A stretch of 64,000 nt of DNA from a virus: the IMG/VR virus record IMGVR_UViG_3300045988_173968; one strand, given 5' to 3'. The translations under genes and the position numbers were made by a program. Shown here piece after piece: positions 7,513 through 61,920 of this stretch. The notes below the pieces were generated by a model that was given only the letters and a program-made list of their open reading frames with translations, did no database searches and was not told where the DNA came from. The first letter of the stretch is position 1; each line of letters begins with the position of its first letter.

Positions 7513-7531
7513 AATGGTAACTAATTTGTGA

Positions 7532-12391: not shown

Positions 12392-12468
12392 TGGTCGGGA
12401 TGACAGGATTTGAACCTGCGACCTCGTACTCCCAAGGCACGCGCTCTACCAAGCTGAGCCACATCCCG
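12392..12468 (-). tRNA. tRNA-Pro (anticodon UGG), CCA encoded
   Basis: CGGGATG/CATCCCG acceptor, anticodon arm CGTGC-CTTGGGA-GTACG, T arm GCAGG-TTCAAAT-CCTGT. Confidence 0.85.
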
Positions 12469-12639
12469 ATAAAGAAAGAGCCTGCGGTTTTTCTACGCCA
12501 CAGGCTCTTCCACAGAAAGGGGGCGATGCACATCCCTGCATCTGGGGCTCTTTTTCCGGCTTGCATTTCGCAAGTCGCCTCTCGCACGAGCAGTGCTAAG
12601 GTTATCTCGAAAGGAGGTGCGGGGGAATGACGACCCCCG

Positions 12640-12726
12640 TGGTGCCGCTGGCGGGATTTGAACCCGCACGATGTTTCCATCGAGGGATTTTAAGTCCCTT
12701 TCGTCTGCCAATTCCGTCACAGCGGC
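12640..12726 (-). tRNA. tRNA-Leu (anticodon UAA), long variable arm, CCA encoded
   Basis: GCCGCTG/CAGCGGC acceptor, anticodon arm AGGGA-CTTAAAA-TCCCT, variable arm TCGATGGAAACATCGT, T arm GCGGG-TTCAAAT-CCCGC. Confidence 0.85.
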
Positions 12727-42832: not shown

Positions 42833-42847
42833 TAAGGAGTGGGTTTC

Positions 42848-44113
42848 ATGAACAAGGAAATTCTGACCAAAGTGATCCTTCGGAACGACAGTACCGCGAA
42901 TTGGGACACTAAAAACCCCGTCCTTGATAAGGGCGAGATTGGTTTCGAGTTCACCGCTGACGGTGCCGTTCTTACCAAGGTTGGCGATGGTGCGACGGCT
43001 TGGAAACAGCTTGGCTACAGCGGCGTTGACGAGGACAAAATCAATACACTGATTGGGCAGGCTCGTGACAGCTATTATACTGTTGTTCGTAACGATGGCG
43101 AAACCGATAATGAAGCTATTACACGCGCTCTCGGCGAGTCTGTTGCCGCAAAGGGCGATGTATGCGCGATCAAAACTGCGCTTGGTACTACCCCTGAGAG
43201 TTACTCTTATATGGGCTATGTATTTGACGGCGAGAACTGGGGTGCCATGGATGGCAACATCAACTCTGAAAATGTAATTATCGGCAAGGATCTGGTTTTC
43301 GCCGGCAGTTATACTTCTGTTGGCAATGTATCCAAGGGCACTACTATTCAGAAAGGCAAAACTCTGGATCAGCTTCTGACCGCAATGTTTACTCAGGAGC
43401 TCAATCCCCCCAAGCCTACTCCAACCTGCTTTGTCACTCTGACCGGCGCTGGTGCTAAGGAGGTTGGCGAAACCTTTACTCCTGCTTATACTACCGCTTT
43501 TGACCCGAAGACATATGCTTACGCCCCCACCGCTACTGGCGTCACTGCTACTGGCTGGGAAGTAAGTGATAGCGCCGGTGCCAAGAAGACTACGGCTACC
43601 GGTTCCTTTGATGGTTTCACTGTCGAAGATAATACGAACTATAAGTTAACTGCTAAGGCTACATATGGTGATGGTAATGTTCCTAAAACAAACCTCGGCA
43701 ATGACTACCCGGCATCACAAATTAAAGCTGGCACTACTGCGGCTGCTTCTTCCGCTGCCGTTACTGGCTATCGTAAGTGGTTTACTTATGTTGGTACTGA
43801 TCTGACCGCTCTGACCAGCAATGTGATCCGTACTAAGGGTACAAGCAAGGGCGCTGCTGGCTCAAACTTCAATGTTAACCTGGCTATCCCTGCCGGCACT
43901 AAGCGTGTCTATGTTGCTATTCCCGCATCCAAGAACAAGGCTCTGTCTTCTGTAATAGATGTGGACGGTATGGGTCTGGATGTAAAGGGCAATTTTACAA
44001 AGCAGACTGTATCTGTTGAAGGTGCTAATGGCTATACTGCCGTTGACTATGATGTATTCATTGTGGAAAACCTGGCTGGTTTGGCTGCTACTACCTATCA
44101 GATCAAGTTTTGA
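42848..44113 (+). CDS. tail fibre protein 1 (shared N-terminal fibre-anchor module)
   Basis: AAGGAG RBS. N-terminus LRNDSTANWDTKNPVLDKGEIGFE....KVGDGATAWKQLGY recurs in the 46614 and 47783 genes. Confidence 0.65.
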   Translation: MNKEILTKVILRNDSTANWDTKNPVLDKGEIGFEFTADGAVLTKVGDGATAWKQLGYSGVDEDKINTLIGQARDSYYTVVRNDGETDNEAITRALGESVAAKGDVCAIKTALGTTPESYSYMGYVFDGENWGAMDGNINSENVIIGKDLVFAGSYTSVGNVSKGTTIQKGKTLDQLLTAMFTQELNPPKPTPTCFVTLTGAGAKEVGETFTPAYTTAFDPKTYAYAPTATGVTATGWEVSDSAGAKKTTATGSFDGFTVEDNTNYKLTAKATYGDGNVPKTNLGNDYPASQIKAGTTAAASSAAVTGYRKWFTYVGTDLTALTSNVIRTKGTSKGAAGSNFNVNLAIPAGTKRVYVAIPASKNKALSSVIDVDGMGLDVKGNFTKQTVSVEGANGYTAVDYDVFIVENLAGLAATTYQIKF

Positions 44114-44132
44114 GTAAAGGGGGATAAATAAT

Positions 44133-46550: not shown

Positions 46551-46613
46551 TATGACATTCTGGGATCGCCCATGTGGCGATCCCTCCTTATATAAAAGAA
46601 AGGATTGATTATT

Positions 46614-47714
46614 ATGGCTGAAAAGACTTTGCAGACACGGATACAGCTTAAGTATGATACTTGGGCGAACTGGAATACCGAAGCTGGCAAGGCTGTTGTA
46701 CTTAAAAAGGGCGAAATAGCTTTTGTTGAGGTTCCTTCTGCCACAGGTGATATTACTCAAACTCCTGCATTGCTTGCAAAGGTTGGCGATGGGGTTAAAA
46801 CATTTAGTGCTCTCCCCTGGCTGAAAGCTACTGCTGCAGATGTTTTCCCATGGGCCAAGGCAGAAACAAAGCCTACCTATGAAGCGTCCGAGATTTCTGG
46901 GCTTGACGCTTTTATCAAAGGACTCGCCGACAAGGATACAGACACGCAATACCAGCTTGTTGAAGTAAAAACGAACAATGTTGTCACTGGTTATAAACTG
47001 CAGAGCAAATCCAAGGGTGGCACCTTTGCTGACATTTCCGGTTCTCCTGTCATTGATGTTATGACGGAAGCGGAAGTAAACGCTCTGATTGACACTAAGC
47101 TGAACGGCAAGAACTTCGGTGATATTATCACTCATAACGCCTCTGAATTTGCCGCTACTTCTCACACGCATAAAATGGCAGATGTATCTGGCTTGCAGAC
47201 TTACATTGATGAGAAAACTGCTGGTCTGACCGGGGCCATGCACTTCGTCGGTACAGCTACTGCCAATCCTACAAGTGAGTCCGGGCCTGCCGTGACCGGC
47301 GTTACCAACTTTGCCAAAGGTGATGTTGTTGTCTGGAATAAGCAGGAGTATCTTTGTACGACTGCTGGTACCAACAAAACTGCTGTGTGGCAGCTTTTCG
47401 GTGATGAGGGTTCTTACGCTGTAAAAGGCAGTATTAAGAATGCAGATATTGCTTCCGATGCCGCTATTGATCAGAGCAAGATTAGTGGTTTATCTACTAC
47501 TCTTGGCAACAAGGTCGATAAGGTGGCCGGCAAGGGATTGAGCGCCACAGATGTCACAAAGACTATGACTGATAAGTGGGATGCTGCATATAAGCACTCT
47601 CAGACTGCTCATAACTATGCGGCTGCTTCCCATAAGCACAACCAGGCCGATATTGTTCAGGCTACTGGCGATATCCTGATTCTTGATTGTGGCAGCGCTA
47701 CTAAGAATATTTAA
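46614..47714 (+). CDS. tail fibre protein 3 (shared N-terminal module)
   Basis: ATG 46614. N-terminus LKYDTWANWNTEAGKAVVLKKGEIAFVE...KVGDGVKTFSALPW. HTH and HKH motifs. Confidence 0.65.
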   Translation: MAEKTLQTRIQLKYDTWANWNTEAGKAVVLKKGEIAFVEVPSATGDITQTPALLAKVGDGVKTFSALPWLKATAADVFPWAKAETKPTYEASEISGLDAFIKGLADKDTDTQYQLVEVKTNNVVTGYKLQSKSKGGTFADISGSPVIDVMTEAEVNALIDTKLNGKNFGDIITHNASEFAATSHTHKMADVSGLQTYIDEKTAGLTGAMHFVGTATANPTSESGPAVTGVTNFAKGDVVVWNKQEYLCTTAGTNKTAVWQLFGDEGSYAVKGSIKNADIASDAAIDQSKISGLSTTLGNKVDKVAGKGLSATDVTKTMTDKWDAAYKHSQTAHNYAAASHKHNQADIVQATGDILILDCGSATKNI

Positions 47715-47727
47715 AAATTTGCTCTTT

Positions 47728-47758
47728 GGGTCGTTGGTTAATTCCAACGGCCCTTTTT
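47728..47758 (+). terminator. intrinsic terminator
   Basis: GGGTCGTTGG-TTAATT-CCAACGGCCC followed by TTTTT. Confidence 0.65.
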
Positions 47759-47782
47759 GAGCATTGTTGAGGAGGTTTCTTA

Positions 47783-48472
47783 ATGGCTCAAAAAATTATA
47801 AATGCAAGAGCTAAAAACAAGCGCGATACAAGCGCCAATTGGACTGCCGCAGATCCCGTGTTGCTCGATGGAGAAATCATTATTGTTGATACAGCGGAAG
47901 GCGAAGTTCGCACGAAGATCGGTGATGGTACAAAGAAGTATTCCCAGCTTCCGTTCGAGGATGAAAAATTGAGAAGTCTCCTGAACAATAAGCTGGATAA
48001 AAACGGGAAAGTTGATTGGAGCAACATAGAGAATGCTCCAACAATTCCATCTAATCTTGACAATGTTGTTACATACGATGAAGGTGGTATTGTAGATGCG
48101 GCAGATCCAATCGACGCCGACACTCTCGGTGGGTATAGCGCTGCGTATTTTGCGACGAAATCATCTGTTGATGCTACAAATTCGAGCCTTTCTTCTTTGC
48201 AGACATCTGTATCCAATGCTGAATCCAGTATCACCAGCTTGCAAGAGTCCGTAGCTTCTGCACAGTCAGACATTGGCACATTGCAAACATCTGCAGAGAA
48301 TCTGTCCTCTTCCAAAGTTGACAAGGCTGGTGGCACTATGAATGGCAAGCTTATAGCTCAAAATAATGCTGATTATGCCGTTAAGCAGATGCGCAATATT
48401 TTCATTTCTACTGCTGCACCTACTGCATCTGATGGTGCCAATGGCGATATTTGGCTTAAGTATGAAGCGTGA
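47783..48472 (+). CDS. tail fibre protein 4 (shared N-terminal module)
   Basis: GAGGAGG RBS. N-terminus KNKRDTSANWTAADPVLLDGEIIIVD...KIGDGTKKYSQLPF. Confidence 0.65.
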   Translation: MAQKIINARAKNKRDTSANWTAADPVLLDGEIIIVDTAEGEVRTKIGDGTKKYSQLPFEDEKLRSLLNNKLDKNGKVDWSNIENAPTIPSNLDNVVTYDEGGIVDAADPIDADTLGGYSAAYFATKSSVDATNSSLSSLQTSVSNAESSITSLQESVASAQSDIGTLQTSAENLSSSKVDKAGGTMNGKLIAQNNADYAVKQMRNIFISTAAPTASDGANGDIWLKYEA

Positions 48473-48488
48473 AGGGAGTGGTGTTTAA

Positions 48489-50027
48489 ATGGCGACGGCT
48501 GATGCGGTTAAAGCTGTTCCTTCTGGTAAGCACATCTTGACCAATCTGCTTCCCCATAGCAGTTTTGATAATGCCGGATGGACTTCTGGGGCAAATTGTA
48601 CTGTATCTTATGATAGCACAATCAAGAAGTACGGAAATTATTCCTTAAAAGTCACAAGCACTGCTTCAAGCACTACGGAAAATTTATTCTACTCCTCTTC
48701 CCTACCATACCAGACGAAAGGCCACATTTACTACTGTAGATGCGAAATGTATCAAACTGTTGCTGGGGCGTCTTCTGGTATGCAAGCATATTGGCCAGAG
48801 GCTGAACCTTTCATGGGAACAAGTACATACGATTCCGCTAAGATAAACACATGGCAAATACAAAGCTTTAGAATTGTTCGTAGTTCATGGGCATCTGGAA
48901 ATCAAAAATTTAGATTTGATGTTGAAGCCATGAAGTCTCCAAGTTTTATTTACATTGACGGTGCAATGCTCATTGATCTTACTGCAACATACGGCTCCGG
49001 TAATGAGCCTACTCAGGCGTGGTGCGATGCAAACATTCCATATTTTAGCGGAACACTCGTAATCGGAAAGCTAAGCCCCGGAGATATTATTAACTTTGAT
49101 TATTCAGGGGCAGGAAATTTCATTGAACTTCCTGCTGGCAAATATAAACTCGAAGCATGGGGGGCTCAGGGAGGTAATTATTCATCCTATAAGGGTGGAT
49201 ATGGCGGTTATTCTGTCGGCGTTCTAAGTCTTGCTAAGAAAACACCACTTTATGTTTATTCTGGCGAGCAGGGTAGTTCCTCTGCTATAACTGGGGGATT
49301 TAATGGTGGCGGTAGCGGAAGAACATCTGGTCGCGGTGGCGGCGGTGCCTCCGATATTAGAATCGCACAAGATTCACTGTACGCTCGTGTAATCGTAGCG
49401 GGCGGCGGTGGCGGTTCCGGTGTTACATCCAGCGGTAGCGGCAAAGGTGTTGGCGGCGGTACAACCGGTCTTGGAGGCTACACGAACGAAACTACGCTTG
49501 CTGGAGGCAATCGTAGCGGCGGTGGCGGCACTCAGACAGAAGGCGGCATATCGTGGAATAACCAAAGCTCTACGAAGGGCACCTTCGGAAATGGCGGTAA
49601 CGGAACCGGATATAGCTGCGGAGGCGGCGGTGGCGGTTGGTACGGCGGTGGCGGCGCATACGACAACGACAGTGACTCTGATGGTCGTAACGGCGGCGGT
49701 GGTTCTGGTTACATCTATACAGCATCCACTGCATCAAATTACCCTTCTGGGTGTCTCTTGAACAGCTCTCATTATCTTTCTGACGCACAAACTGCGACGG
49801 GAGCAACATCGTTTCCGTCCCCTACTGGCGCTAATGAAACAGGCCATACAGGGAATGGATATGCTCGCATAACAGTAATCGAAGTTTCTCCGACCTTTTC
49901 TGCTCCAGTTAAAATTAGCGGCAACTGGAAAGTAGCTTCTGATGGTCTCGTTAAAATAAATGGTGCTTGGAAATCCGTTGAACAAGGCTTTGTAAAAATA
50001 AACGGTACCTGGAAAGAGATTTCATAA
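48489..50027 (+). CDS. receptor-binding-type fibre protein with glycine-rich domain
   Basis: 512 aa. AWGAQGGN..GGYGGYS..GGFNGGGSG..GGGGASDIRI..VAGGGGGSG matches the glycine-rich-domain pattern seen in phage fibres. Confidence 0.6.
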   Translation: MATADAVKAVPSGKHILTNLLPHSSFDNAGWTSGANCTVSYDSTIKKYGNYSLKVTSTASSTTENLFYSSSLPYQTKGHIYYCRCEMYQTVAGASSGMQAYWPEAEPFMGTSTYDSAKINTWQIQSFRIVRSSWASGNQKFRFDVEAMKSPSFIYIDGAMLIDLTATYGSGNEPTQAWCDANIPYFSGTLVIGKLSPGDIINFDYSGAGNFIELPAGKYKLEAWGAQGGNYSSYKGGYGGYSVGVLSLAKKTPLYVYSGEQGSSSAITGGFNGGGSGRTSGRGGGGASDIRIAQDSLYARVIVAGGGGGSGVTSSGSGKGVGGGTTGLGGYTNETTLAGGNRSGGGGTQTEGGISWNNQSSTKGTFGNGGNGTGYSCGGGGGGWYGGGGAYDNDSDSDGRNGGGGSGYIYTASTASNYPSGCLLNSSHYLSDAQTATGATSFPSPTGANETGHTGNGYARITVIEVSPTFSAPVKISGNWKVASDGLVKINGAWKSVEQGFVKINGTWKEIS

Positions 50028-50044
50028 TGAAAGGAGTTGTTTCA

Positions 50045-50575
50045 ATGGCAAAGAAAGCTAATTTAAAAGATCCACTTGGAAATATTTTATACCCTTATAC
50101 TTTGGTTGACAGTGTTCGTGATGAAGCTGGGAGGGTGCTTAGTTCTCTTGTATTAAGAAAAGACAATACGACAGAATTTACTCCATCTGCGGATTATCAT
50201 CCGTCAACAAAGAAATATGTGGATGAAACCGCTGCAGCTAAGCAGCCAAAAATCACATCTTCCGGCATCCTTATGGGCAATGGTTCTGGTGGAGTGTCCG
50301 CTGCTACAGCAAACACTGATTATCTTCCCGTGTCAAACGCTAACCTTAAAGGAACGCCTACCGCACCAACTGCAGCAAAGGGAACCAATACCACACAAGT
50401 TGCTACAACTGCTTTTGTCCAAAACGCTTTATCTGGCATAAGTGCCAAGGGATTTGAGTTTGGCACCACTGCTCCGACAAACACCAACCTGTTATGGATT
50501 GATACGACCAACGGAAGCATCCTCAAGTATTACAATGGGTCTGCATGGACAGCCGTAAATGCTGTATTTAAGTAA
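50045..50575 (+). CDS. fibre-associated protein (shared C-terminal module LWIDTTNGSILKYYNGSAWTAV)
   Basis: AAAGGAG RBS before ATG 50045. Confidence 0.55.
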   Translation: MAKKANLKDPLGNILYPYTLVDSVRDEAGRVLSSLVLRKDNTTEFTPSADYHPSTKKYVDETAAAKQPKITSSGILMGNGSGGVSAATANTDYLPVSNANLKGTPTAPTAAKGTNTTQVATTAFVQNALSGISAKGFEFGTTAPTNTNLLWIDTTNGSILKYYNGSAWTAVNAVFK

Positions 50576-50587
50576 GGTGGTGATGAT

Positions 50588-51082
50588 ATGTCTTTATTAA
50601 GCAAGCTCATCATCAACATCCTGACTAAGGCGCAGTTGAATGGGGCGTCTGGTGTTACAACTTCTAAAAAGGATTTGTATTATGGAAGTAATGATCAGAT
50701 CTACCTTGTTCCGCATGAGCAGGAAGCTCCAAATATTGATGTCGGCACAGTGACATCGGGTACTTCTCCCGCTGTCACTGTTTCCATATCTGGGGATAAG
50801 GCACTTCTCAACTTTGTGCTACAAAAAGGCGACAACGGTAAAGATGGAACGAATGGCACTAATGGTACAAGTGCCTATGAGGCCGCTAAAACCGGCGGCT
50901 ATACTGGCTCTGAAACAGACTTTAATTCATCATTGGCCACTGTCCCCTCCTACTCTCCTTTTGTGTACTCGAGCTCGGCTCCCTCTGATACTAAGAAGCT
51001 TTGGATTGATACAGCAAACAGTAATATTATGAAGTTCTATAATGGTACTGCTTGGACTCCCATAGGCTCTGTATTTTCTTAA
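50588..51082 (+). CDS. fibre-associated protein with short collagen-like GxT run (shared C-terminal module LWIDTANSNIMKFYNGTAWTPI)
   Basis: AAGGTGG RBS. GDNGKDGTNGTNGTS. Confidence 0.55.
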   Translation: MSLLSKLIINILTKAQLNGASGVTTSKKDLYYGSNDQIYLVPHEQEAPNIDVGTVTSGTSPAVTVSISGDKALLNFVLQKGDNGKDGTNGTNGTSAYEAAKTGGYTGSETDFNSSLATVPSYSPFVYSSSAPSDTKKLWIDTANSNIMKFYNGTAWTPIGSVFS

Positions 51083-51099
51083 GACGGGAGGAAGACGCT

Positions 51100-51390
51100 A
51101 TGGAAACGATAGACTTAATTATAAAAATTGCAGCTTTGATTACTGCGGTTGCGACTTGCTTTGCGTTGGTTAAGCAGATACATAGGGCAGTAAAGTGGGT
51201 CGAACATTTGGCTCAACAGTGTGACGAGAATGTTTTAAGCATTTTACGGCTCACTATTGTGTCTACTGAGATGCCAATGTCTGAACGCATTGCCGCCGGA
51301 GATAAGTACATTAAGCTTGGCGGTAATGGCGCTGTTAAACATTTGTATCAGAGTTTGGTTGATGAGAACGCTAAAGACGAGAAAATTTAA
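51100..51390 (+). CDS. small membrane protein, holin-like candidate
   Basis: GGGAGG RBS before ATG 51100. N-terminal TM helix IIKIAALITAVATCFALV. The function is a guess from size and topology. Confidence 0.4.
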   Translation: METIDLIIKIAALITAVATCFALVKQIHRAVKWVEHLAQQCDENVLSILRLTIVSTEMPMSERIAAGDKYIKLGGNGAVKHLYQSLVDENAKDEKI

Positions 51391-51404
51391 GAAGGAGGGA
51401 TTAT

Positions 51405-51911
51405 ATGGTTGATTTAAGCTTTTATAGCCTGCTTGTGGCTGTAAAATCGTTTGAACCTGTTACAGAAAATTTGGTTGCTGATTACTACGCACAAAGCAAT
51501 CATCTTAGTATTGACGATTTATTTATGGTGCTCGCCGATGGAAGCGATCGTTATAAAGATAAAACACTTGATGAGATCTTAGAGTATTGTTCCTCTGCAG
51601 CGAGCTCAATCTGTGCTGGCTATGGTGTTGCTGAGAGGTTTTCCCCTATTTTTAAAGCATATTTGATTCCATACGATTGTAGCACTTCTACCGACGAAGA
51701 TAGAAGTAAACTAATCTCTCTTTATGAGTCTGCTGCGTGCATCGATGTTTCAAATAATGATCCTGCGTGGTATCTTAGGGAAAATATTAGATATCGCCTG
51801 ATGAGTATTTATGTTGTTTCTTCGAACGATATTGACAAGATAAAAGAATTGCTCCCAAAGGTGAAGGCTGGTAAAGAACAGTATAGCAAATGGCTTGTAA
51901 AAGAGAGGTGA
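51405..51911 (+). CDS. hypothetical protein, helper family 1 of the Cys-ladder cassette
   Basis: AAGGAGGG RBS. 168 aa. Weak similarity to 52663-53175 (L-x-YCS....I.A..G). Confidence 0.6.
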   Translation: MVDLSFYSLLVAVKSFEPVTENLVADYYAQSNHLSIDDLFMVLADGSDRYKDKTLDEILEYCSSAASSICAGYGVAERFSPIFKAYLIPYDCSTSTDEDRSKLISLYESAACIDVSNNDPAWYLRENIRYRLMSIYVVSSNDIDKIKELLPKVKAGKEQYSKWLVKER

Positions 51912-51917
51912 GGTTAA

Positions 51918-52532
51918 GTGTCTTTAGAATCGAAAAACACAATCCTCGCTTCTGATTTCGTGTCCCTCAAAGCTCGTGTTAAAGCTGAAATGAATCGAAG
52001 ACAATATGTGGGTTCGTTGGTTTCTTATGCCGGAACTGCCTATGATTATTCAGTAATACCAATAAGTGGTGGCGTTATTTCAACTGAACATATCAATAAG
52101 CTTGTAACTCCAGTGAATGCAATCGCAGCGAGTGGATATACAGCCAAAAATTCAGGAGATATAGTTCAGGAGCTTTCGGCTTTTAGCACTAAACTTAAGG
52201 CTCATGAAAGTCAGGCGCTGTATGGAGCAACAGACTGCGCGAGTAGCTGTTCTGGGTTGTGTAGTTCTGCTTGCAGTGGCACTTGCTCCGGTTGTAGCGG
52301 TTGTTCTGGTTGCGGAGGATGTGACACAACTTGCAGCGGCTCTTGCAGCGGCGGTTGTGAAGGTTGCGGATCTGGTTGTAACGCAGGTTGTGCGCCGTCT
52401 TGTGCGGGTGGCTGCTGGAATGATGGATGTACCAGCAGTTGTACTGCAACATGCCGAACTTGCGCGGGAGTATGCGGTAACGGTTGTGGATATAATTGTG
52501 GTTCGAATTGCAGCGGGGGCAACACAAAATGA
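51918..52532 (+). CDS. Cys-ladder protein A: about 110-aa globular N-domain plus about 95-aa Cys/Gly/Ser tail with 25 Cys, mostly C-x3-C
   Basis: 204 aa. GTG start after GAGGTGAGG. Tail CASSCSGLCSSACSGTCSGCSGCSGCGGC...CGSNCSGG. The N-domain is about 60% identical by eye to 54819-55469. Confidence 0.7.
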   Translation: MSLESKNTILASDFVSLKARVKAEMNRRQYVGSLVSYAGTAYDYSVIPISGGVISTEHINKLVTPVNAIAASGYTAKNSGDIVQELSAFSTKLKAHESQALYGATDCASSCSGLCSSACSGTCSGCSGCSGCGGCDTTCSGSCSGGCEGCGSGCNAGCAPSCAGGCWNDGCTSSCTATCRTCAGVCGNGCGYNCGSNCSGGNTK

Positions 52533-52662
52533 TTCATAAATCAGAATTTAGTCCTTTGGGATAGCTTGATTTTAAAAAGAACTGAGAACCACTTCGCATA
52601 GGAACGAAAGTTATGGAATTGTTGTTGTCGCAGTGGTTGTAGTTTTAATTGGGGAGTTGTAT

Positions 52663-53175
52663 ATGTTTGGAATTTCGATGGCAAATGTATCTGTGAAAAT
52701 CGCCGAGTTAAAAGATATTGTGATTGACGAGATTCAGGAGTGTATTGATGAAGGTAATATAAAGCCAGAATATGCCCCGTATTATATCTTGGTTTATTAT
52801 TCGACTCAGAGCAAAATTTCAGAATCTCGTAGCAATCTTTTGACTTATTGTTCTAACATAGTCAATGTTATTGAAGCGGCGACAGGCATAACATATGACG
52901 ATAATTTTAAAAATGTTGTTATTGATTTCTTTATTGCTTTTAGATCCATAGAAAATATAGATATTGATAAACGGATCGAAGAGCTTGAGGGAATCATTAG
53001 CAAATACAAAAACCTCACTGTTGGTAGTATTGAATGGTTTTTGATTGAATTTATGAAAAGAGAACTCCTTGGCCGTTATGCTGGTGATGCTAAGTATTTT
53101 GAAAAGATGAAACTGTTAGTCGCCGAGTCATCACCCACAGACAATATATATAAAGAGTTCTCAAGCCAAGTATGA
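52663..53175 (+). CDS. hypothetical protein, helper family 1 paralog
   Basis: GGGGAG RBS before ATG 52663. Confidence 0.55.
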   Translation: MFGISMANVSVKIAELKDIVIDEIQECIDEGNIKPEYAPYYILVYYSTQSKISESRSNLLTYCSNIVNVIEAATGITYDDNFKNVVIDFFIAFRSIENIDIDKRIEELEGIISKYKNLTVGSIEWFLIEFMKRELLGRYAGDAKYFEKMKLLVAESSPTDNIYKEFSSQV

Positions 53176-53194
53176 TATGTATTGGAGGATTAAC

Positions 53195-53479
53195 ATGAAA
53201 GAGATTAAGGTACAATTAACAAGCAAAGAAAGCACATATATTGAGAGACTTTGGTATGAATACAATGCTTCTCTGAACATTCTGAGATTTTTGATGTCTC
53301 AGGATACCGTACTGGAACAGCATCTGCAAAAGTATTTGGATAGTTCGGAAGCAAAATACGCGGAGCTCGAGATGGCCAAGGATAGTGTCAGTAAGGCACA
53401 TAAGCCCGAGGAGATTACTGGAGAATATGATTATCGATTCGACTTTGACGAAGAATGCTTAATTTACAAGGAGAAATAA
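53195..53479 (+). CDS. small helical hypothetical protein
   Basis: GGAGG RBS before ATG 53195. 94 aa. Confidence 0.55.
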   Translation: MKEIKVQLTSKESTYIERLWYEYNASLNILRFLMSQDTVLEQHLQKYLDSSEAKYAELEMAKDSVSKAHKPEEITGEYDYRFDFDEECLIYKEK

Positions 53480-53480
53480 G

Positions 53481-54797
53481 ATGAAGAAGAGAGTCGATAT
53501 TGGTTATCACGATTATGTATATAAATTATTTTTTGAGCCAGGCTTAGATCTTGCGCCTAACGAGAGCCTGACAAGAAATATTACCTTTCAGGTAACTGAT
53601 GACTGCTGTATGAATTGCTCCTACTGTTACCAAGGTCATAAAGGTCATCGCATCATGTCTAAGGAGGTCGCCCGCAAGGGAGTTGACCTCCTTTTTGATA
53701 TGTATGAGAAAAATGATAGCCCATTTATCAACAAAAAGACCAAGGCCATCATCCTCGACTTCATTGGCGGTGAACCGTTAATGGCGGTTGATGTTATCGA
53801 TTACATCTGTACCTATTTTGTGCAGAAATGTCTTGAGCTTGATCACCCGTGGCTATATACATGGCGTGCCTCGATGACATCAAACGGCGCTTTGTATTTT
53901 GAGCCAGCTGTTCAGAATTTTCTGAAAAAGTTCCGTGGCAATGTGAGCTTCTCAATCACTCTTGATGGCCCTAAAGAAATTCACGATGCTTGTCGAGTTT
54001 ACCACGATGGTCGTGGTAACTTTGATGATGCCTATGCTGCGATGAAGCATTTTAATTCGCACTACTACGAAGAGCTTGGCACTAAGGTTACTATTGCGCC
54101 GGAAAATCTGCATAATCTTAATAAAATCGTAGATTTCTTTCTTGCGGAAGGCATGAATCTTATTCACGCAAATTGCGTGTATGAAGCAAAGTGGACTTAT
54201 GAACAAGCAAGCGTATTTTACGATGAGTTAAAAAAGATGGCCGACAAGTTGCTTGAACGCAATGATGAAACTACTGTGAGCCTGTTTGATGAAGCGTTCT
54301 TCAGACCATTACCGCCAGAAGAAAATTCAAATTGGTGTGGAGGGGATATGAAAATGTTGGCATTTGACCCGGCTGGCATTGCATATCCGTGTTTGCGATA
54401 TATGTCATCATCTCTTGGAACTGATAGAGCCCCAATTATAGTTGGCTCAGTAGATGGGCTCTTTGTTACGGAAGAGCAAAAGAACATCAAAGAATACATG
54501 GATAAAATAACACGCCGTTCTCAGTCTACGGATGAATGCTTTAATTGCCCGATAGCGGGCGGCTGTGCTTGGTGCTCCGCTTGGAATTACCAAGAAACTG
54601 GTTCCGTTAACAAGCGCAGTACAAATATTTGTGCAATGCACAAAGCCAGGTCTTTAGCTAATGTGTATTACTGGAACAAGTGGTATAAGCAGAACGGTAT
54701 CGACAAGGTATTCAAGATGTATCTGCCCAAAGAAGAAGCCTTAAAGATCATCAACGAGCAGGAATACGATATGCTTGCTGAACTCAGCAAAGAGTAA
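53481..54797 (+). CDS. radical SAM enzyme with C-terminal SPASM-type auxiliary cluster domain (anSME/peptide-maturase-like)
   Basis: 438 aa. CCMNCSYC (CX3CX2C), GGEPLM, C-terminal CFNCPIAGGCAWC ... NICAMH. Confidence 0.85.
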   Translation: MKKRVDIGYHDYVYKLFFEPGLDLAPNESLTRNITFQVTDDCCMNCSYCYQGHKGHRIMSKEVARKGVDLLFDMYEKNDSPFINKKTKAIILDFIGGEPLMAVDVIDYICTYFVQKCLELDHPWLYTWRASMTSNGALYFEPAVQNFLKKFRGNVSFSITLDGPKEIHDACRVYHDGRGNFDDAYAAMKHFNSHYYEELGTKVTIAPENLHNLNKIVDFFLAEGMNLIHANCVYEAKWTYEQASVFYDELKKMADKLLERNDETTVSLFDEAFFRPLPPEENSNWCGGDMKMLAFDPAGIAYPCLRYMSSSLGTDRAPIIVGSVDGLFVTEEQKNIKEYMDKITRRSQSTDECFNCPIAGGCAWCSAWNYQETGSVNKRSTNICAMHKARSLANVYYWNKWYKQNGIDKVFKMYLPKEEALKIINEQEYDMLAELSKE

Positions 54798-54818
54798 AAA
54801 TGAAAGGAGGTCATATCT

Positions 54819-55469
54819 ATGGCTCTTGAATCAAAGAATCAGACGCTTGCCTCCGATTTTATATCTCTTAAAGCAAGAGTAAAAGCTGAAATGCAACGCC
54901 GTAAATATAACGGTGATCTTACAAAATACGCTGGAGCCGAATGGGATTATGTTGTTCAGCCGACTGCCGGTGGGAAACTTCTGCCGGAACACTATAATAA
55001 AATCATTGAACCGCTGAATGCTATTGCACCGACTGGGTTTAATGCCCCCATAAGGCAAGGCGATCATGCAATTGCTATTAAGGTTGCAGTGGACAAACTG
55101 GAAGAATACGAGAAGAAGTCTCCATCGAGCGGAGCAAATGACTGTGCTGTGAGTTGCTCTGGGAGATGCACCACGAGCTGCGGGAGTAATTGTTACAAAG
55201 TCTGCCATGGCGGTTGTAGTTATGGGTGCGGTGTTGGCTGTAGCGGCGATTGTGATGGTGGATGTGAAGGTGATTGCAATACGACTTGTTCTGGAACATG
55301 CAAAACTGGTTGTGGTGGAGGATGTAAAGGAACATGCAAAGGTGGTTGCAGCAATGGCTGCAGTCAGTATTGCAACTTGTCTTGCGGCTACGGTTGCGGC
55401 ATGGGCTGCGGTAATGGTTGTGGCGGGAGTTCAGGCGGCGGAACCACTAATCCTGGCACCGGAGCCTAA
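54819..55469 (+). CDS. Cys-ladder protein B: paralog of 51918-52532 with 24 Cys in a near-perfect C-x3-C register
   Basis: 216 aa. AAAGGAGG RBS. Tail CAVSCSGRCTTSCGSNCYKVCHGGCSYGCGVGCSGDC...CGNGCGG. Confidence 0.75.
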   Translation: MALESKNQTLASDFISLKARVKAEMQRRKYNGDLTKYAGAEWDYVVQPTAGGKLLPEHYNKIIEPLNAIAPTGFNAPIRQGDHAIAIKVAVDKLEEYEKKSPSSGANDCAVSCSGRCTTSCGSNCYKVCHGGCSYGCGVGCSGDCDGGCEGDCNTTCSGTCKTGCGGGCKGTCKGGCSNGCSQYCNLSCGYGCGMGCGNGCGGSSGGGTTNPGTGA

Positions 55470-55496
55470 ACAATGATTAACTTGGAGGATTAAAAT

Positions 55497-55973
55497 ATGG
55501 AAACTGTAAAATGTTCTTTCTTTTACGAAGGCGAAGAGTACGAGTTTGAGATGCGCAACCGCATCTCTTTCACCGAGATGGCTGTTCTTTGCCACAATGT
55601 TGTTGGGGAGATGTTCTCTAATGGAGAATACTTCCCTGAGTTCCGTGATTTCGCTATGTGGAAGGAGATCATTCGCGCATATACCAATGTGTCTCTGTGG
55701 GATGATTCCGAGGACATTAACGAAATGAACAAGAATTACGAGCTCATCTTCGGATCTACCATCTGCGACGAAATTCGCAGCATCGCTGGCGAACAGATTG
55801 ATCGCCAGATCGAGGAGTATATAGACAAGCTGGAACAGCGTGAGCTAAATAAGACCAGGCTGGATATGCTTATCGATGAGATAATTGGAGATCCATCCGT
55901 AACAGCGGCTTTGAAACAGGTTGCGGATACTTTGTCCGTAGCTCAGCAAGCTGATGAAGAGAAAACTGAATAA
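55497..55973 (+). CDS. acidic hypothetical protein, last gene of the cassette
   Basis: 158 aa. GGAGG RBS. Confidence 0.6.
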   Translation: METVKCSFFYEGEEYEFEMRNRISFTEMAVLCHNVVGEMFSNGEYFPEFRDFAMWKEIIRAYTNVSLWDDSEDINEMNKNYELIFGSTICDEIRSIAGEQIDRQIEEYIDKLEQRELNKTRLDMLIDEIIGDPSVTAALKQVADTLSVAQQADEEKTE

Positions 55974-55985
55974 GACACGATTAAG

Positions 55986-56014
55986 CGGGGCCCTTATTGG
56001 GCCCCGTAGTTTTA
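55986..56014 (+). terminator. intrinsic terminator closing the Cys-ladder cassette
   Basis: CGGGGCCC-TTATT-GGGCCCCG followed by TAGTTTT. Confidence 0.6.
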
Positions 56015-56035
56015 ACGCTGAAAGGAGGCGACTTT

Positions 56036-56689
56036 TTGGCTACTATATATTTTAACAATGACGCCGAATTTGTGAATTACTTCAACTCCCAAGAAGGGAA
56101 AAAGGTCGCCAAGCAACTCGTAAGACGAGCAAAAGCATCCAAGAGCGGCGTTGTTGGCAAGAGTTCTGGCATTGAATTTTCGGCAGCCGATGGGGATAGT
56201 AGAACGCAAGAGGAAATTATGTTTGATGAAGCAAATCGGTTGCGCGATTTGATTATGAAATGGATTCGGCTTTTCCTTAACTTAAAGTCTCATAAGGATG
56301 GCGTTTATTGGGGCATCTATAGAACAAATGAATACTGGCGAACTGGAAAATTAAAGCGTTCTGTTAAAGAGGTTGAGCCCAATTTTGTTCGAATAACCCA
56401 AGGACAACATGAACAGCTTTCAATCGATATTGATTTTGATCAAGAAAGCATTATGCACGAGTCGATTTTGAACGAGTGGTATCCTGGGGAATATGAAGAT
56501 CGATATCAAGGCGATGTTTATAAACTGATTCGTTACGGTTGGAGAGTTCGAAAAGATGTTTGGTTCAAGAATATACCTGATTTTGGTTATTTTGATGGCT
56601 TTGACTTTGTTGATATGGCTGTAAAAGAGTTTAATTCCAACAATCCGTACAAAATAAAGGTTGCATTGTCTGATGCATTCTATAAGTAA
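56036..56689 (+). CDS. hypothetical tail-module protein
   Basis: AAAGGAGG RBS 7 nt before TTG 56036 (..ATIYFNNDAEF). The ORF-track N-terminal extension spans the terminator and is discounted. Confidence 0.55.
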   Translation: MATIYFNNDAEFVNYFNSQEGKKVAKQLVRRAKASKSGVVGKSSGIEFSAADGDSRTQEEIMFDEANRLRDLIMKWIRLFLNLKSHKDGVYWGIYRTNEYWRTGKLKRSVKEVEPNFVRITQGQHEQLSIDIDFDQESIMHESILNEWYPGEYEDRYQGDVYKLIRYGWRVRKDVWFKNIPDFGYFDGFDFVDMAVKEFNSNNPYKIKVALSDAFYK

Positions 56690-56703
56690 AAAGAGGTGGT
56701 TAT

Positions 56704-59700
56704 GTGGCTGATAATTATAAGATAAGACTTATTGGTGAGTTGGACGCTGAAACAACCACCTCGAATATAAAAAAACAACTCGAAGGAATAAAGATTAAGG
56801 CAAACATTCTTGAAGGCGGTTTTACCGCGGAGAGTATAGAGAAGCTTTCCGAGCAAATCTCCAATGCAGTAGATGCTTATCAGAAGAAAAGCGAAAAATC
56901 TCCTATACGGGTTCCAATTAAAATCTCCAAGGTTGATGGAAGTGAAGCTATTGCTGTATTCAAGAATCAGCTTAGCAAGGAGATCAATGCTCTGAACATT
57001 GCCTCTCCTGGTACGCACGATGTGCATTTGGAAATCAAGGATTCCGAGTAGGGCAAAGAAAAGGCTGCAGCTCTTAAACAAGAAGCAAATGAGCAAGCGG
57101 CTAAGGCTGCCGAAAAAGAATTAAAGGCTCATCAGGCTACAAATACTGCTTTGCAAAATGAGATTGATAAGCTCAAGGAGAAGTTCCAAGAGCAGCAAAA
57201 AGCTAACGCAGAAGCACTGGCTGAAGAGCGTCAGGCGAGAAAAAAGGCTGAAGCCGAAGCGGCTGTGACAAACGAGAAGAAAAAGCAGCAGGAAGCTGAA
57301 GTTGCCGCTCAAGCCGCCCAAAAAAGAACTAACAAACTGATTCAGGATTCTATAAGTTTACTTAATAAACAGACTGTTTATTTCAAGAAAAACCCCGTTG
57401 TATATAACGGAAACATACTTGACGCTAACCGTTGGAAATACCAGTTAAACAATATCATCAATGGCAAGGTTACAAATCCTGATGAAGCGGCAGATATCGT
57501 TTCAAAATATCGTCAGTGGTTTGACGGTATGAAAACATCCGCTATTGAAGCTGGCATAACTGGCGCAACGGCCATCGATAAGATAAAGCAGGCTATTACT
57601 AAGTTTGGCAGTTGGAACATCATGACTTTTGCCATCACCAAACTTAAGCGCGGCCTTGTTGATATCGTTAAAAATGTCAAAGAGCTTGATGCTGCGATGA
57701 CGGAGCTGCAAAAAGTTACGGATGAAACATCCAACCGATACGAGCGCTTTGTTAAGGACGCTGCTGCTTCCGCCAAGCAACTTGGTACTACCCTTGTCGG
57801 TATCGTAAACGCTACGAGCACATTTGCTCGACTTGGCTACAATATAGATGATGCTTCTGAATATGCAAAAATCGCAACCGTCTATAAGAATGTTGGCGAC
57901 TCTATTGAAAGTATCGATGATGCTGCAAGCAGTCTTGTCTCTACGATGAAAGCATTTAAGCTTGAGAGTATTAGTGACGCTTGGGGTATTATTGATCTGT
58001 TTAACGAGGTTGGCAACTCCTTTGCGACTACATCCGGAGACATCGGCGAAGCGATGAAGCGCTCTGCCTCTGCTTTGTATGAAGCGGGCAATACGATTGA
58101 GCAGTCTGTTGGTTTGTATACTGCAGCGCAAACGATTGTACAGGATGCTGATGTAGTTGGTACGGCATTAAAGACTCTTTCTATGCGCTTGCGTGGCACA
58201 AAAACTGATCTTGAAGCCGCTGGACTTGATGTCGATGGGCTTGCATCTTCTACATCTGCGTTAAGAGGTGAGATCCTTGCCCTTACCAATGTGGATATTA
58301 TGAAGAGCGCTACCGAGTTCAAGTCTACATATGAAATGTTGCAGGATTTGAGCAAGGTATGGGATAAGCTCGAAGAAACCTCTCGTGCCAGAGTTCTTGA
58401 ACTCGTTGCCGGTAAGCGAATGGCTTCCACAGTTGCGGCCATTATCAATAATTTCGACATTGCTGAAGAAGTTACTGGATTGAACTATTCCGGCAGTGCC
58501 TTAAAAGAAAATGAGAAATACCTCGAAAGTATCAATGGACGCATTGATGTACTTAAAGCTTCTTATGAGGAACTTTCTCAAACCGTGCTCGATAGTGGTC
58601 TTGTTAAAGCATTTGTAGATATCGGGAATGCAGCTATCAATGCATTTAACTGGCTTTATAGCGCAGAAATTAGTTCTGACTCTCCGATTGGCAAATTAGG
58701 CAACATTTCAAAAAGTGTATATGAAATCAAAGATGCTATAACTTCCTTAATCCCATCCTTAGATCATGTTTCGAAGATAAAGCTGTGGGGCATCTTGCCA
58801 ACAATCATTCCTGCTATTACTGCCATTTCCAATGTACTAAGCAAAGGAAATGATAACGGGTATGTACAGGTAAAAAGAGAAGGAACATCATTAAGGCTTG
58901 CTGGCACTGATCGCTGGGCGAACGAAAAGGAAGCACTATCAGAAAAAGACTACCTTGACTTCTTAGGGTTTGGAGATTATACAAAGGCTGAAAAGTATCT
59001 CAAGAAAAATAAAGATAAATTTGACGGGTTATTTAAAGAGATTCTCACATGGAAATACGATTCGACTGATCTTGATCCAGACACGCTACTTCCAAAGAAA
59101 AAATTCAAACCCCTCTTTGAAACTGACCCTCAAAAATATCAGGAGAAGATAAAGCAATTTGGCGCTTATGCTGATGCGGCTGATCAAATTGCCCATAGCA
59201 CTGAGCAAGCAGCGGAAGCTACTGATATGATGGGCGAAGCCGTTGTTCGAGACACCTTTAAATATAAAGCTTTTACTGTTGCTGCTAAAGCGGCCAATGT
59301 AGCTTTATCAACGCTTAAGAGTCTCGCTATCTCATTTGCTATTCAGCTCGCTATAAACGCGGTAGTTGCTCTTGTCGATGAACTTAAAAATGGCATGAGC
59401 AACGCTGTTGAACGAGTGAGCGATGCCAAATCTGCTCTTGAAAGTGTTGACGAAAAAATCTCCGATACAACAAAAGAACTTGAAGAGGCTCAGAGCAGGA
59501 TTAAAGATATTCAAAATCTTGGAAAACTGTCAATTACGGATGCATCTGATCTCCGTAATCTTCAGTTATCCAATGCTCAACTTCTTGTACAGCTTTCGTT
59601 GCTCGAAAAGGAAAAAGAGCTTAAAGAAGCTGAACTTAATGCTGGCAAGAATGCCGTTTGGAATCGTTTTCAAAATTCACGGTGGGATGGATATTACACA

Positions 59701-61920
59701 AGACCCCAGGAAAAGTTAACTCAAGAAGAATATGTTAACTACATGCGTGATCAGCTTCCTAAAAAATACGAGCGTATTGCGGCACTCAATCAACTGGCTT
59801 CCCAAAGAGATTTGACCGCCGCCGAGAAGGGCGAGCTAAAATTATTGCAGTCCGGGATTGAAAAGGCACAAACCAATCTTCTTGAAATTGCTGAAAACCT
59901 GAAGGATATTGACAGTGAGCAGTCTAACGCTGTCATTGCAATGATTGCATGGCTGACTTCCAACAGTAAAACACAGCTCGAATTGTTTAATACCTACGCT
60001 GGTTCTATATCTGAGGGAGTACAGAAATCGTTGCTTGATATGGCATCGGCTGGAACCTTAACGGAAGAAAGTCTTAAAAGGGTTGTCCCCGAGCAAACGC
60101 TCGAAGCCATGGTTGCCCTTTGCGGCTCTATTGAGAATGTTATCTATCAATATGAGAACATGGCAAATAGCGGAGCGGATGTTACTGGCTCTCTGTATGC
60201 ACAGGCTCGTGAGCTTGAATCTATCAACGAAGATATGGATTCCTTGCAAAGCTCATATAAAACGCTCGTCGCGGCCATAAGCGAATATAATGCAAATGGC
60301 TACATGACTGTTGATACATTGCAGTCTTTCCTGTCCTTGTCTGACGACTATATTGAGGCTCTCACGCTTGAGAATGGACAGCTTGTTCTGAACACTGATA
60401 GTATCATCGCCTTGGCAAATGCTCGACTCGACGAAATGCTTGCGAAGAAGTGGAATCAGACTGTCGAAGTTATTGATACTCTCATTAAAGAGAAGAGTAG
60501 TACCGAAGAGACTACGGAGTCTATTCAAGATAAGACATACGCCATTGAAGATATGACGGATGCCGCTCTTGAGAATTACATTGTGGAACAGCTTGGGCTT
60601 AAGAGTAACCAAGAAATCAACAGTGAACTTCGTGCGGCTATCGACTCATTTAATATCTATAAGGCGATGATTGATTCTACTCGAAAAGGTCTTGGACGGT
60701 ACACCAATACCACTTTCGGAGCCGCAGACGCAACAAAATCTCTAACCGATGCAATTAAGGATCAATATGATAAGCTACTTGATAAGGAGAAAGCCCGTAT
60801 CAATGCTGCCAAAGAAGTTCTCGAGGATAGAAAGAAAGATCTTCAAGATGAACTTGATGCCCTTGAGGAGCAGTACGAAGCCGAGGATAAACTCCTCGAA
60901 TTGCAAAAGGCAAAAGACCGTTATGAAGCGGCTAAGGCGAACAAGAATACTCGGCTTTATACGGCTGATAAGGGATGGCAGTGGGTATCCGATCCACAAG
61001 AACTTGAGGACGCAAAGAGTAGCCTTGATGAACTCCACAAAGAGATGGAGCGAGATGAGGCTAAGAAGGCTATTCAAGACCAAATCGACGCTATCGATAA
61101 CCTAATTGATAAGTGTGACGATGCGCTGGATATTCTCGGGCAAGACTGGGATGATTACATTGAGCATTTGAATCTTGTCGCTGAGATGCAAGGTCTTACT
61201 ATGGATCAGTTGGGCGATCAGGTCGAAGGATTTGTTGACCGCGCAATAGACCTCATCAGGCAGTATTCCAATGCCTTGAAAGAAGCAGCGGCAGCTGAAA
61301 GTATGCTCGGTAATGGCAATGGTAAAAAGAATGCCGGAGATAACGACAAGCCAGTAGAAAAGGATTTCTGGAAAGATACAAAGGCTGGCACAATAATCTC
61401 TGATGTAATTGCGAAAAGCAAGCAGCAGGAGAATTGGTATCGTAATAATCTGCCGAATTCCATTACTAACCCATTCCCGAACGGAGTAAGTGGTGTATCG
61501 GGCACAAAGATTGCAGGTAAGATAGTAGATGATATTGCTAAGGGAAAGCGCGCTCCGCTCGCTACCGGCGTTAAGTATGTTTCCTCATCCGGTATTTACA
61601 ATGTCGATGATGGAAACGGCCCAGAAATCATCGCTCGTCGCGGCAGATATACTCGACTTGAAGTTGGCGATGGTGTTGTACCAGCAGATTTAACTGCTCG
61701 GTTATTTGCTCTTGCCAAATCTCCAGAGGAATACATTATGCCTAAAGTAAGCGGACTGTTTGCTATTTTGGCTGCCAATTTGATTGGCCGTCCCGGTCAG
61801 GTACAGCAATCTGCTCAACAGCCTATCTATATCGCTAAGGTAGAAGTTACTGGTGTTGAGGATGTTGATGGGTTCCTTGACGAATTAACTAAAATCGTAA
61901 ATCGTAAGAGAAAGGTGTGA
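56704..61920 (+). CDS. tail tape measure protein; one in-frame TAG (57049-57051)
   Basis: ORF-track pieces 56704-57051 and 57151-61920 share a frame with only the TAG between them. About 1738 codons. Long Ala/Lys/Glu coiled coils and central hydrophobic segments are typical of tape measure proteins. Confidence 0.8.

Follow-up and report, generated by a model that had tools for sequence, protein, structure and literature searches.

A phage tail-region cassette combining a CXXX-repeat-family radical SAM enzyme with its predicted cysteine-ladder substrates

Introduction

The CXXX-repeat system, which Haft and Basu reportedly defined in silico in 2011, is represented in NCBIfam by target proteins (TIGR04114 and TIGR04117), a radical S-adenosylmethionine (SAM) enzyme (TIGR04115), a small protein (TIGR04116) and a SPASM-only maturase (TIGR04119). 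The small partner comprises 7,086 clusters at 90% identity, many of them named from Prevotella, and the cellular targets are about 100-175 aa long. Here we analyse a relative of this system in a 64,000-nucleotide stretch of DNA from a gut phage, IMG/VR record IMGVR_UViG_3300045988_173968 (hereafter the window), in which positions 51405-55973 encode a radical SAM enzyme, two proteins ending in a ladder of regularly spaced cysteines, a 94-aa protein (p94), two helper proteins and an acidic protein. An initial annotation made from the sequence alone had treated the association of such an enzyme with Cys ladders as essentially new. The pairing is not new in kind, since the curated TIGR04115 family exists as one part of a four-part system abundant in Prevotella. 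Our literature search found no publication on the chemistry or function of the TIGR04115/CXXX-repeat family, which a paper on RiPP (a peptide made by ribosomes and then modified post-translationally) mining in Bacteroidales does not mention either. It also found no phage version of the system and no phage structural protein matured by a radical SAM enzyme, and the phage form appears to be undescribed.

Several other described systems bear on the interpretation of this locus. The SPASM radical SAM enzyme PapB acts on repeated C-x3-D units, whose period is similar to that of the phage ladder. Long folded leaders are known from the Nif11 and NHLP precursors. QhpC, the thioether-cross-linked subunit of quinohemoprotein amine dehydrogenase, is a full-size protein matured by the SPASM radical SAM enzyme QhpD. 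Among phage proteins, the gp38-type adhesins of T2/S16-like phages and the Tfa-type fibre assembly proteins are about 200-260 aa long and are encoded directly after the fibre gene. HxsA, a full-size repeat protein acting as an antiphage effector, is matured by the SPASM radical SAM enzymes HxsB and HxsC (PMC13128918).

The radical SAM enzyme

With 386.6 bits (E=1.5e-115) over the whole profile (positions 1-359 of 359), the enzyme passed the curated cut-off of 350 bits for TIGR04115 ('radical SAM peptide maturase, CXXX-repeat target family'). The next-best family, PapB, gave 162.9 bits against a cut-off of 340 and the SCIFF maturase family 91 bits against a cut-off of 425, while the QhpD (TIGR03906) and HxsB/HxsC-type (TIGR03978) families gave 83 and 72 bits, respectively; the protein also matched phrog_1802. 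The radical SAM cluster motif CX3CX2C (C42/C46/C49), the GGEP motif and the full set of seven SPASM cysteines (C286, C304, C353, C356, C362, C365 and C384) are present, and the ten cluster cysteines and GGEP are invariant in 11 phage and cellular homologues. Judged by its sequence, the enzyme is a TIGR04115 SPASM maturase with all three predicted Fe-S cluster sites intact. This agrees with the enzyme class first assigned to it and disposes of the possibility, considered at the time, that it is a housekeeping maturase with another substrate. The phage clade straddles the boundary of TIGR04115, since the phage orthologue of one related locus (L001) scored 300.6 bits, below the cut-off that the window enzyme exceeds; a cellular homologue (L002, described below) reached 630 bits.

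The closest solved structure was CteB (5WGG, E=5.4e-20). Like the CteB/SCIFF and PapB/freyrasin enzymes, thioether-forming ranthipeptide maturases which represent the nearest structure and the second family, the phage enzyme combines CX3CX2C with a seven-Cys SPASM architecture. Unlike them, it lacks an N-terminal RiPP recognition element (RRE), as indicated by an alignment that begins at CteB residue 92, and it scores far under the cut-offs of both families. The substrates differ as well: those of the phage are about 200 aa long with about 24 Cys, and have no conserved Asp/Glu/Thr acceptor and no apparent leader cleavage.

Some orthologous enzyme genes carry inteins inside CX3CX2C (..CSY / C-LTGDT...VHN / C-YQGH..), with the third cluster cysteine of the enzyme as the +1 extein residue (L022, 6001-7749; L021 and L020, 4780-7170; L013, 4771-7173). 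L022 has a mini-intein of about 144 aa and L021 and L020 an intein of about 359 aa with a LAGLIDADG endonuclease; in L013, whose flanking genes are 96-100% identical to those of the window, a Hint+LAGLIDADG insertion splits the enzyme gene into three open reading frames (ORFs). The window copy lacks an intein, which shows the element to be polymorphic between phages that are near-identical. A PADLOC search returned a single defence-model match, a generic radical SAM similarity to pVip (residues 34-116, E=7.5e-9), and the other six cassette proteins had no PADLOC match; membership of an anti-phage defence system was rejected.

The cysteine ladders and their N-terminal domain

Paralogy of ladder proteins A and B is evident from 50% identity (E=9e-46); their tails of 92-93 residues consist chiefly of Cys, Gly, Ser and Thr. 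The 25 Cys of ladder A are separated by 17 C-x3-C, 6 C-x2-C and 1 C-x4-C gaps, and all 23 gaps between the 24 Cys of ladder B are exactly C-x3-C, a periodicity that is far beyond chance. The Cys counts and the spacing pattern reported by the initial annotation were confirmed. No DNA-level tandem repeat was found under the ladders; the periodicity is therefore kept at the protein level, and tandem repetition of DNA was rejected as the origin of the ladders. Within C-x3-C units, position 1 is mostly Ser or Thr, position 2 is Gly in 43% and position 3 is Gly, Ser or Thr, and C-x2-C units are mostly C-[S/T]-G-C.

The start of each ladder is marked by a junction motif, D-C-A-S-S-C-S-G-L-C in ladder A and D-C-A-V-S-C-S-G-R-C in ladder B. 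Its consensus across 107 family members is [D/G]-C-x-[S/A]-S-C-[T/S]-G-[L/M]-C, with a conservation of 84-100% at the individual positions (96-100% for Cys, 97% for Gly and 84% for Leu/Met). In L002 the cellular precursor has the same opening signature (CNGSCYGLC), the CxxSCxGLC pattern being common to both. On the curated target models themselves the phage ladders stayed below cut-off, ladder A with 17.1 bits on TIGR04117 (cut-off 50) and ladder B with 14.3 bits on TIGR04114 (cut-off 20); the Cys region of ladder B also matched phrog_6085.

That the ladder tails are substrates of the enzyme, as had been proposed from the start, is strongly supported because the enzyme passes the cut-off of a family whose defined targets are CXXX-repeat proteins. 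Two ladder genes flank the enzyme gene in the window, and ladder and enzyme occur together in 11/11 phage lineages (see below). The junction motif common to phage and cellular proteins and the ladder-p94 fusion of P0071 point the same way. We hold both the family membership and the assignment of the ladder tails as substrates to be very likely correct. The remark that these substrates exceed RiPP size stands only in part: the phage proteins, with 204 and 216 aa (187-543 aa among phage relatives), are indeed large, but the cellular targets as well as HxsA and QhpC provide precedent.

The AlphaFold2 (AF2) model of ladder A places three helices in the N-terminal domain (N-domain; per-residue confidence, pLDDT, 55-76) and predicts no structure for the tail (pLDDT about 28), in agreement with a domain taking shape only once it is modified. 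The ladder could also be read as a metallothionein-like or multi-cluster metal/Fe-S module, with an enzyme that would not cross-link but would, for instance, convert Cys to formylglycine as anSME does. Metal sites typically have CxxC and CxxxC spacing, export of cellular homologues by the twin-arginine translocation (Tat) pathway is typical of cofactor-loaded proteins, and anSME is a detectable relative (TIGR03942, E=3e-12). However, the anSME score of 46 bits against a cut-off of 349 lies far under those of the thioether-forming relatives, metal binding alone would need no dedicated radical SAM enzyme in all 11 lineages, and the tail is predicted to lack structure, its motifs showing no cluster-like grouping. 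We consider this reading very improbable.

p94 and the cellular CXXX-repeat system

Directly upstream of the enzyme gene in 11/11 lineages lies p94, which is probably a remote homologue of TIGR04116 ('CXXX repeat peptide modification system protein'). The alignment of the p94 family profile to members of TIGR04116 ran from end to end (hhalign 72%, E=3.4e-5) and included a common C-terminal 'x-F-D-F-x-x-C-x-I/Y' element. The relationship is visible to profiles only: p94 had no NCBIfam match even at E<=10, no family member matched the TIGR04116 model directly, and BLASTP gave no alignment with the cellular 91-aa protein. The AF2 model of p94 (pLDDT 94.4, pTM 0.81) shows a three-stranded sheet on a long helical hairpin, a fold with no significant match in the PDB and with only three matches in BFVD, all uncharacterised gut-phage proteins (TM 0.8-0.9). 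We infer that p94 handles the substrate for the enzyme, which carries no fused recognition domain.

The cellular form of the system was examined in a faecal contig, L002 (MT837480.1, 2222-6270), which encodes a precursor with a Tat signal and 32 Cys (TIGR04117/04114; it starts MNNKIQSRREFFK...), the radical SAM enzyme, TIGR04119 and the 91-aa TIGR04116 protein. The phage cassette resembles it in having a TIGR04115 enzyme, a C-x3-C/C-x2-C ladder with its opening motif and a partner of about 90 aa that aligns with TIGR04116. It differs in that the substrate starts with a helical domain of about 105 aa (MSLESKN.../MALESKN...) in place of a Tat signal peptide, in that no cassette protein matches TIGR04119, and in the absence of TatA/TatC, no Tat genes being found nearby. 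The phage form also adds a novel helper of about 170 aa and sits by a fibre protein with a matched module. Tat export as a cellular trait refers here to this one cluster.

Although deposited as 'Bacteriophage sp.', L002 is without phage genes and looks like a Prevotella/Bacteroidales-type cluster; it is probably a misbinned cellular fragment. The TatA/TatC-like ORFs of its cluster were identified by eye, not by scanning.

Conservation of the cassette among phages

Searching viral contigs with the enzyme recovered 22 loci at 67-99% identity and a GenBank faecal phage at 40%. A ladder ORF was found upstream of the radical SAM gene in 24/24 enzyme-anchored loci, and the order fibre gene, ladder, helper, p94 and radical SAM enzyme was kept. 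Diversity was sampled further through contigs encoding divergent N-domain members. Among all loci with enough flanking DNA, ladder, p94 and enzyme occurred together in 11/11 independent phage lineages, and every such ladder locus had a radical SAM gene. This answers the question of co-occurrence in other phages raised initially and runs counter to the case named there as refuting the proposal, ladders being common where no radical SAM gene is near. The divergent members P0079, P0005, P0071 and P0145 are again followed by p94 and the enzyme. The core of the cassette is thus ladder, p94 and radical SAM enzyme.

An exhaustive search with the N-domain profile returned 409 clusters (50% identity), of which 177 had E<=1e-10. 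In the best 150 profile matches, 110 of which were full-length, 103 of the 110 carried a ladder of at least 8 Cys, with a median of 23 Cys per protein (range 9-68) and spacings of x3 in 1,775 cases and x2 in 481; several ladder-less exceptions look like frameshifted ladders. In P0053 the N-domain is kept and the ladder is replaced by a Cys-free C-terminal region, with no radical SAM gene within 850 nt downstream. By eye this region resembles a phage tail-fibre repeat, a likeness that no family search bore out; we count P0053 among the pointers to a fibre association. Outside viruses, the N-domain was found in 1 of 185,579 species genomes, a metagenome-assembled genome (JAZSEJ010000075) of the anaerobe Ruminococcus with the same arrangement but without the helper.

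Within one phage cluster, mean pairwise identity was 94.5% for the enzyme, 90.7% for p94, 85.5% for the ladder N-domain, 83.6% for the ladder tail (78.7% at non-Cys positions) and 74.4% for the helper. The ladder and helper are thus the most variable genes and the enzyme is conserved, and the N-domain and tail of the ladder recombine independently. Mosaicism of this kind is typical of host-range regions, though RiPP cores vary too.

In the locus L057 (logan SRR26629433_49667), four of six genes (198-632, 1416-1991, 2250-3536 and 3529-4194, helper and enzyme among them) hold 4-6 in-frame TAG codons and end in TGA or TAA, the ladder and p94 being TAG-free, which suggests TAG stop-codon reassignment in this phage. 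L051, which carries the P0079 fusion described below, has three extra genes of about 185-197 aa between ladder and p94 (1917-3650), two of which (1917-2474 and 3096-3650) look by eye like mutual paralogues; the locus may hold an expanded helper set.

Fibre context

The cassette lies in the structural/tail region, as the initial annotation had proposed, with fibre-like genes upstream and, downstream, phrog_7299, a virion structural protein, as well as phrog_4211, the tape measure. In nearly every lineage, the gene directly upstream of a ladder ends in a module of about 42 aa with the consensus ..APxxxxLLWIDTxxxxLLKYYNGxAWxPI.. According to the hidden Markov model (HMM) of this module, modules and ladders are equal in number. 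The window, L013 and L022 have two of each and the other loci one of each; only L001 and the TAG-recoded L057 depart from this pattern. The genes of the temperate, myovirus-like element L056 run from the tape measure through LysM, the sheath initiator, Baseplate_J, a Mu-gp48-like protein, a 216-aa module protein, the ladder-p94 fusion, the radical SAM enzyme and a 110-aa gene to a GH25 lysin, so that in this prophage the ladder occupies the fibre slot. Fusions were found in other family members also: in P0079 a ladder protein carries the N-terminal domain known from the window's 512-aa fibre protein (34% identity, E=2e-17), P0077, with 68 Cys, has a CBM_4_9-like insert (a weak match, E=4.6e-4), and P0071 is a ladder protein fused to p94 (hhalign 92.5%, E=4.8e-7).

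According to one explanation, the ladder protein is a Tfa-like assembly chaperone that binds the C-terminal module of the fibre during folding, its modified Cys domain being no functional part of the mature virion. A gene directly downstream of the fibre gene, a product of about 200 aa and a 1:1 ratio to the fibre module are hallmarks of Tfa, and because Tfa-like chaperones share that position, position alone cannot separate an adhesin from a chaperone. Yet there is no evident reason why a chaperone should require about 24 Cys modified by an enzyme, or a three-cluster enzyme dedicated to that task, and the fusions to putative carbohydrate-binding domains point to a role that is exposed and in contact with a ligand. 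Moreover, some Tfa proteins stay on the fibre, so that this explanation overlaps with that of a fibre-associated virion protein. We regard the chaperone explanation as decidedly unlikely.

Structural genes stand on both sides of the cassette in the window, L001 and L025, and holin/endolysin genes are found within one to three genes of the cassette in L016, L052 and L056. The latter position, a common cargo site, would suit a RiPP-like cargo: the ladder protein would be a precursor with a long leader, giving rise to a cross-linked, Cys-rich product (such as a bacteriocin, a signal or a metal chelator) that is released at lysis and benefits the phage or lysogen without belonging to the virion. 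The enzyme falls in the peptide-maturase branch of SPASM enzymes, the product of the cellular relatives leaves the cell by way of Tat, the core region varies in the manner of RiPP families, and long folded leaders such as those of Nif11 and NHLP precursors have precedent, all of which agrees with such a cargo. However, no leader peptidase, exporter, immunity gene or signal peptide was found in any of the 11 lineages, and scans of the cassette with Pfam, NCBIfam and PHROG revealed no protease, exporter/transporter or signal peptide; the classical traits of a RiPP cluster (peptidase/exporter, short precursor) are seen neither in the cassette nor in the 11 lineages. Fusion of the N-domain to fibre-type or CBM-like domains in some members, the strict adjacency and number matching of the ladder with the fibre-protein module, and the structural genes on both sides of the three loci above also argue against cargo. 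Between the two fates initially offered for the ladders, the genomic context hence favours a fibre-associated domain over a RiPP released at lysis, and we judge the cargo explanation rather unlikely.

A proposed model of ladder maturation and fibre docking

We propose that the cassette is a phage-adapted, reduced CXXX-repeat system maturing a tail-fibre-associated protein rather than an exported peptide, a chain of steps to which, taken as a whole, we give an even chance. Upon late expression in the cytoplasm of an anaerobic host, p94 would present the ladder to the enzyme, for which the junction motif may serve as an entry or recognition site. By analogy with CteB/SCIFF, PapB and QhpD, the enzyme would use a 5'-deoxyadenosyl radical to install many sulfur-to-carbon (thioether-type) cross-links, a chemistry for and against which we see equal grounds. 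The product would be a compact domain whose cross-links are redox-independent, whereas disulfides would be unreliable in the reducing gut. Since neither a protease nor an exporter is present, the N-domain would not be cleaved; it would stay on and attach the product to the adjacent fibre protein by docking onto the C-terminal module of the latter. There the cross-linked ladder could serve as an adhesin-like or stabilising element of the fibre tip, comparable to gp38- and Tfa-type proteins, with the helpers as tail-specific accessory factors. For the location of the ladder protein in the virion, too, the case is evenly poised.

By analogy, gp38- and Tfa-type proteins would share with the ladder protein an N-terminal attachment part, a Gly-rich C-terminal part (a conserved scaffold with variable positions) and number matching to the fibre. 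They have no sequence or fold similarity to it in Pfam, PHROG or Foldseek comparisons, and gp38 needs no enzymatic maturation, whereas the scaffold of the phage ladder is Cys-based and tied to the radical SAM enzyme. The QhpD/QhpC and HxsB/HxsC-HxsA pairs resemble the phage system in that SPASM radical SAM enzymes mature a functional protein and not a small secreted peptide. They differ in their substrates and repeats, QhpC being a periplasmic enzyme subunit and HxsA an antiphage effector, neither phage-encoded nor virion-associated.

Several observations weigh against this model. The thioether chemistry is an analogy, since we found no experimental report for any TIGR04115 member, and the ladders lack a fixed Asp/Glu/Thr acceptor in the repeat of the kind found in PapB or SCIFF substrates, which makes the cross-link pattern unpredictable. 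The presumed virion incorporation is read from genomic context only (fibre slot, module counts and fusions), and L001 is without the WIDT module. The slot between fibre and lysis genes, as in L016, L052 and L056, is a classic cargo or moron site, and Tfa-like chaperones also sit directly after fibre genes. A Foldseek search of the PDB with the N-domain gave no match (best E=3.2); docking to the fibre module is suggested by gene adjacency and number matching only, given a model of moderate confidence and no structural match. The link of p94 to TIGR04116 has a probability of only 72%, and p94 is not recognisable as a PqqD-type RRE, having neither a PDB sequence match nor a significant PDB fold match. 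Finally, no cultured phage with the cassette was found, the INPHARED matches above 30% identity being two unannotated faecal contigs.

The suggestion that a phage structural protein matured in this way is undescribed agrees with our literature search, the structural role of the ladder protein being presumed from context. With its compact three-gene core and a predicted place to look, the fibre tip, the phage branch offers a tractable handle on the family. A virion-borne ladder would add radical SAM cross-linking to the ways in which phages harden or diversify their receptor-binding apparatus and would account for fibre stability in the reducing, protease-rich gut; phage engineers could then need to transfer the maturase together with such fibres when swapping them. 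We tentatively suggest, as somewhat less than an even prospect, that many phages of gut anaerobes build a part of the fibre tip from a poly-thioether (or otherwise radical-cross-linked) ladder made by a phage-encoded radical SAM enzyme, a covalent scaffold that replaces disulfides in a reducing habitat and displays variable receptor-binding residues. On this reading, radical SAM chemistry would for the first time be tied to the maturation of a virion structural protein, and the CXXX-repeat family would gain its first assigned function and chemistry. The N-domain family, large (409 clusters) but nearly absent from reference genomes, marks a blind spot in the annotation of the gut virome.

Cassette layout and accessory genes

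All seven ORFs of the cassette were recovered where the initial annotation had placed them (Table 1).

Table 1. Genes of the cassette and its surroundings in the window.
Feature	Coordinates	Strand	Length	Remarks
512-aa fibre-like protein	48489-50027		512 aa	Jelly-roll/CBM-like N-terminal domain; ALK/LTK glycine-rich domain PF12810 (E=3.7e-45); C-terminal 'K-I-N-G-x-W-K' repeats
Small fibre-like protein B	50027-50575	+	182 aa	C-terminal 'LWIDT..KYYNGxAW' module of about 42 aa; HMM match at residues 141-182 (E=2e-22); proposed partner of a ladder protein
Small fibre-like protein C	50588-51082	+	164 aa	Same C-terminal module; HMM match at residues 122-164 (E=1e-23); second module, paired in number with the second ladder
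Helper 1	51405-51911	+	168 aa	Acidic, pI 4.8; accessory
Ladder protein A	51918-52532	+	204 aa	Helical N-domain at residues 1-105, then 25-Cys CXXX/CXX ladder; predicted radical SAM substrate
Helper 2	52663-53175	+	170 aa	Length from ATG at 52663, ORF opens at 52633; follows ladder A, as in single-ladder phages; accessory
p94	53195-53479	+	94 aa	Core component; directly upstream of the radical SAM gene
Radical SAM/SPASM maturase	53481-54797	+	438 aa	TIGR04115 member
Ladder protein B	54819-55469	+	216 aa	Same N-domain, 24 Cys; second predicted substrate
Acidic protein	55497-55973	+	158 aa	Link to the system doubtful
Tape measure	57151-61920		1589 aa	

A scan of the window revealed no + strand terminator-like site at either edge of the cassette (51390-51405 and 55973-55997), and the nearest convincing one is at 47728-47753; the suggestion that the cassette is terminator-bounded is therefore not confirmed. 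Its proposed membership also needs revision, in that p94 belongs to the universal core, the helpers are accessory and the acidic protein is lineage-specific.

The two helpers are true paralogues, as first supposed. BLASTP detected the relationship weakly (22% identity, E=3e-4), and profile-profile comparison gave hhalign 96.4% and E=1.3e-9 over 154 columns. In L017-L021, orthologues of helper 1 lie after the ladder (22-27% identity, E down to 2e-20), and those of helper 2 occur in L003-L015 and L028 (31-35% identity, E about 1e-27 to 4e-32). Helpers are missing in 3-4 of the 11 lineages and are thus accessory. They contain only 2-4 Cys and no SPASM motif, have no Pfam, NCBIfam, PHROG or PDB-profile match, and their type co-varies with the type of the ladder tail, not with that of the N-domain.

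A second ladder and a second helper, like the acidic protein, are confined to the window and to L013 and L022, its two closest relatives. The acidic protein, found in this lineage alone, has no family match in Pfam, NCBIfam, PHROG or PADLOC; comparison with the helpers (hhalign 0.1%) led us to reject it as a third helper, and its inclusion among the components of the system is not upheld.

Between fibre-like protein C and helper 1 lies a 112-aa ORF (51052-51390; about 97 aa from ATG) with an N-terminal hydrophobic helix, which matches phrog_32121 of unknown function and is kept in L013 and L022 only; it could encode a holin-like or membrane-associated protein. The gene order of the region 42839-61920 is unusual in that the tape measure gene has the fibre-like genes and the cassette upstream of it, whereas such genes lie downstream in most tailed phages. 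Elsewhere in the window, six tRNA genes (Thr-TGT, Thr-CGT, Ser-TGA, Ile-TAT, Pro-TGG and Leu-TAA) are encoded on the - strand at 7437-12726, in the part transcribed leftward, and a reversal of the GC skew near 18-20 kb is in keeping with divergent transcription modules.

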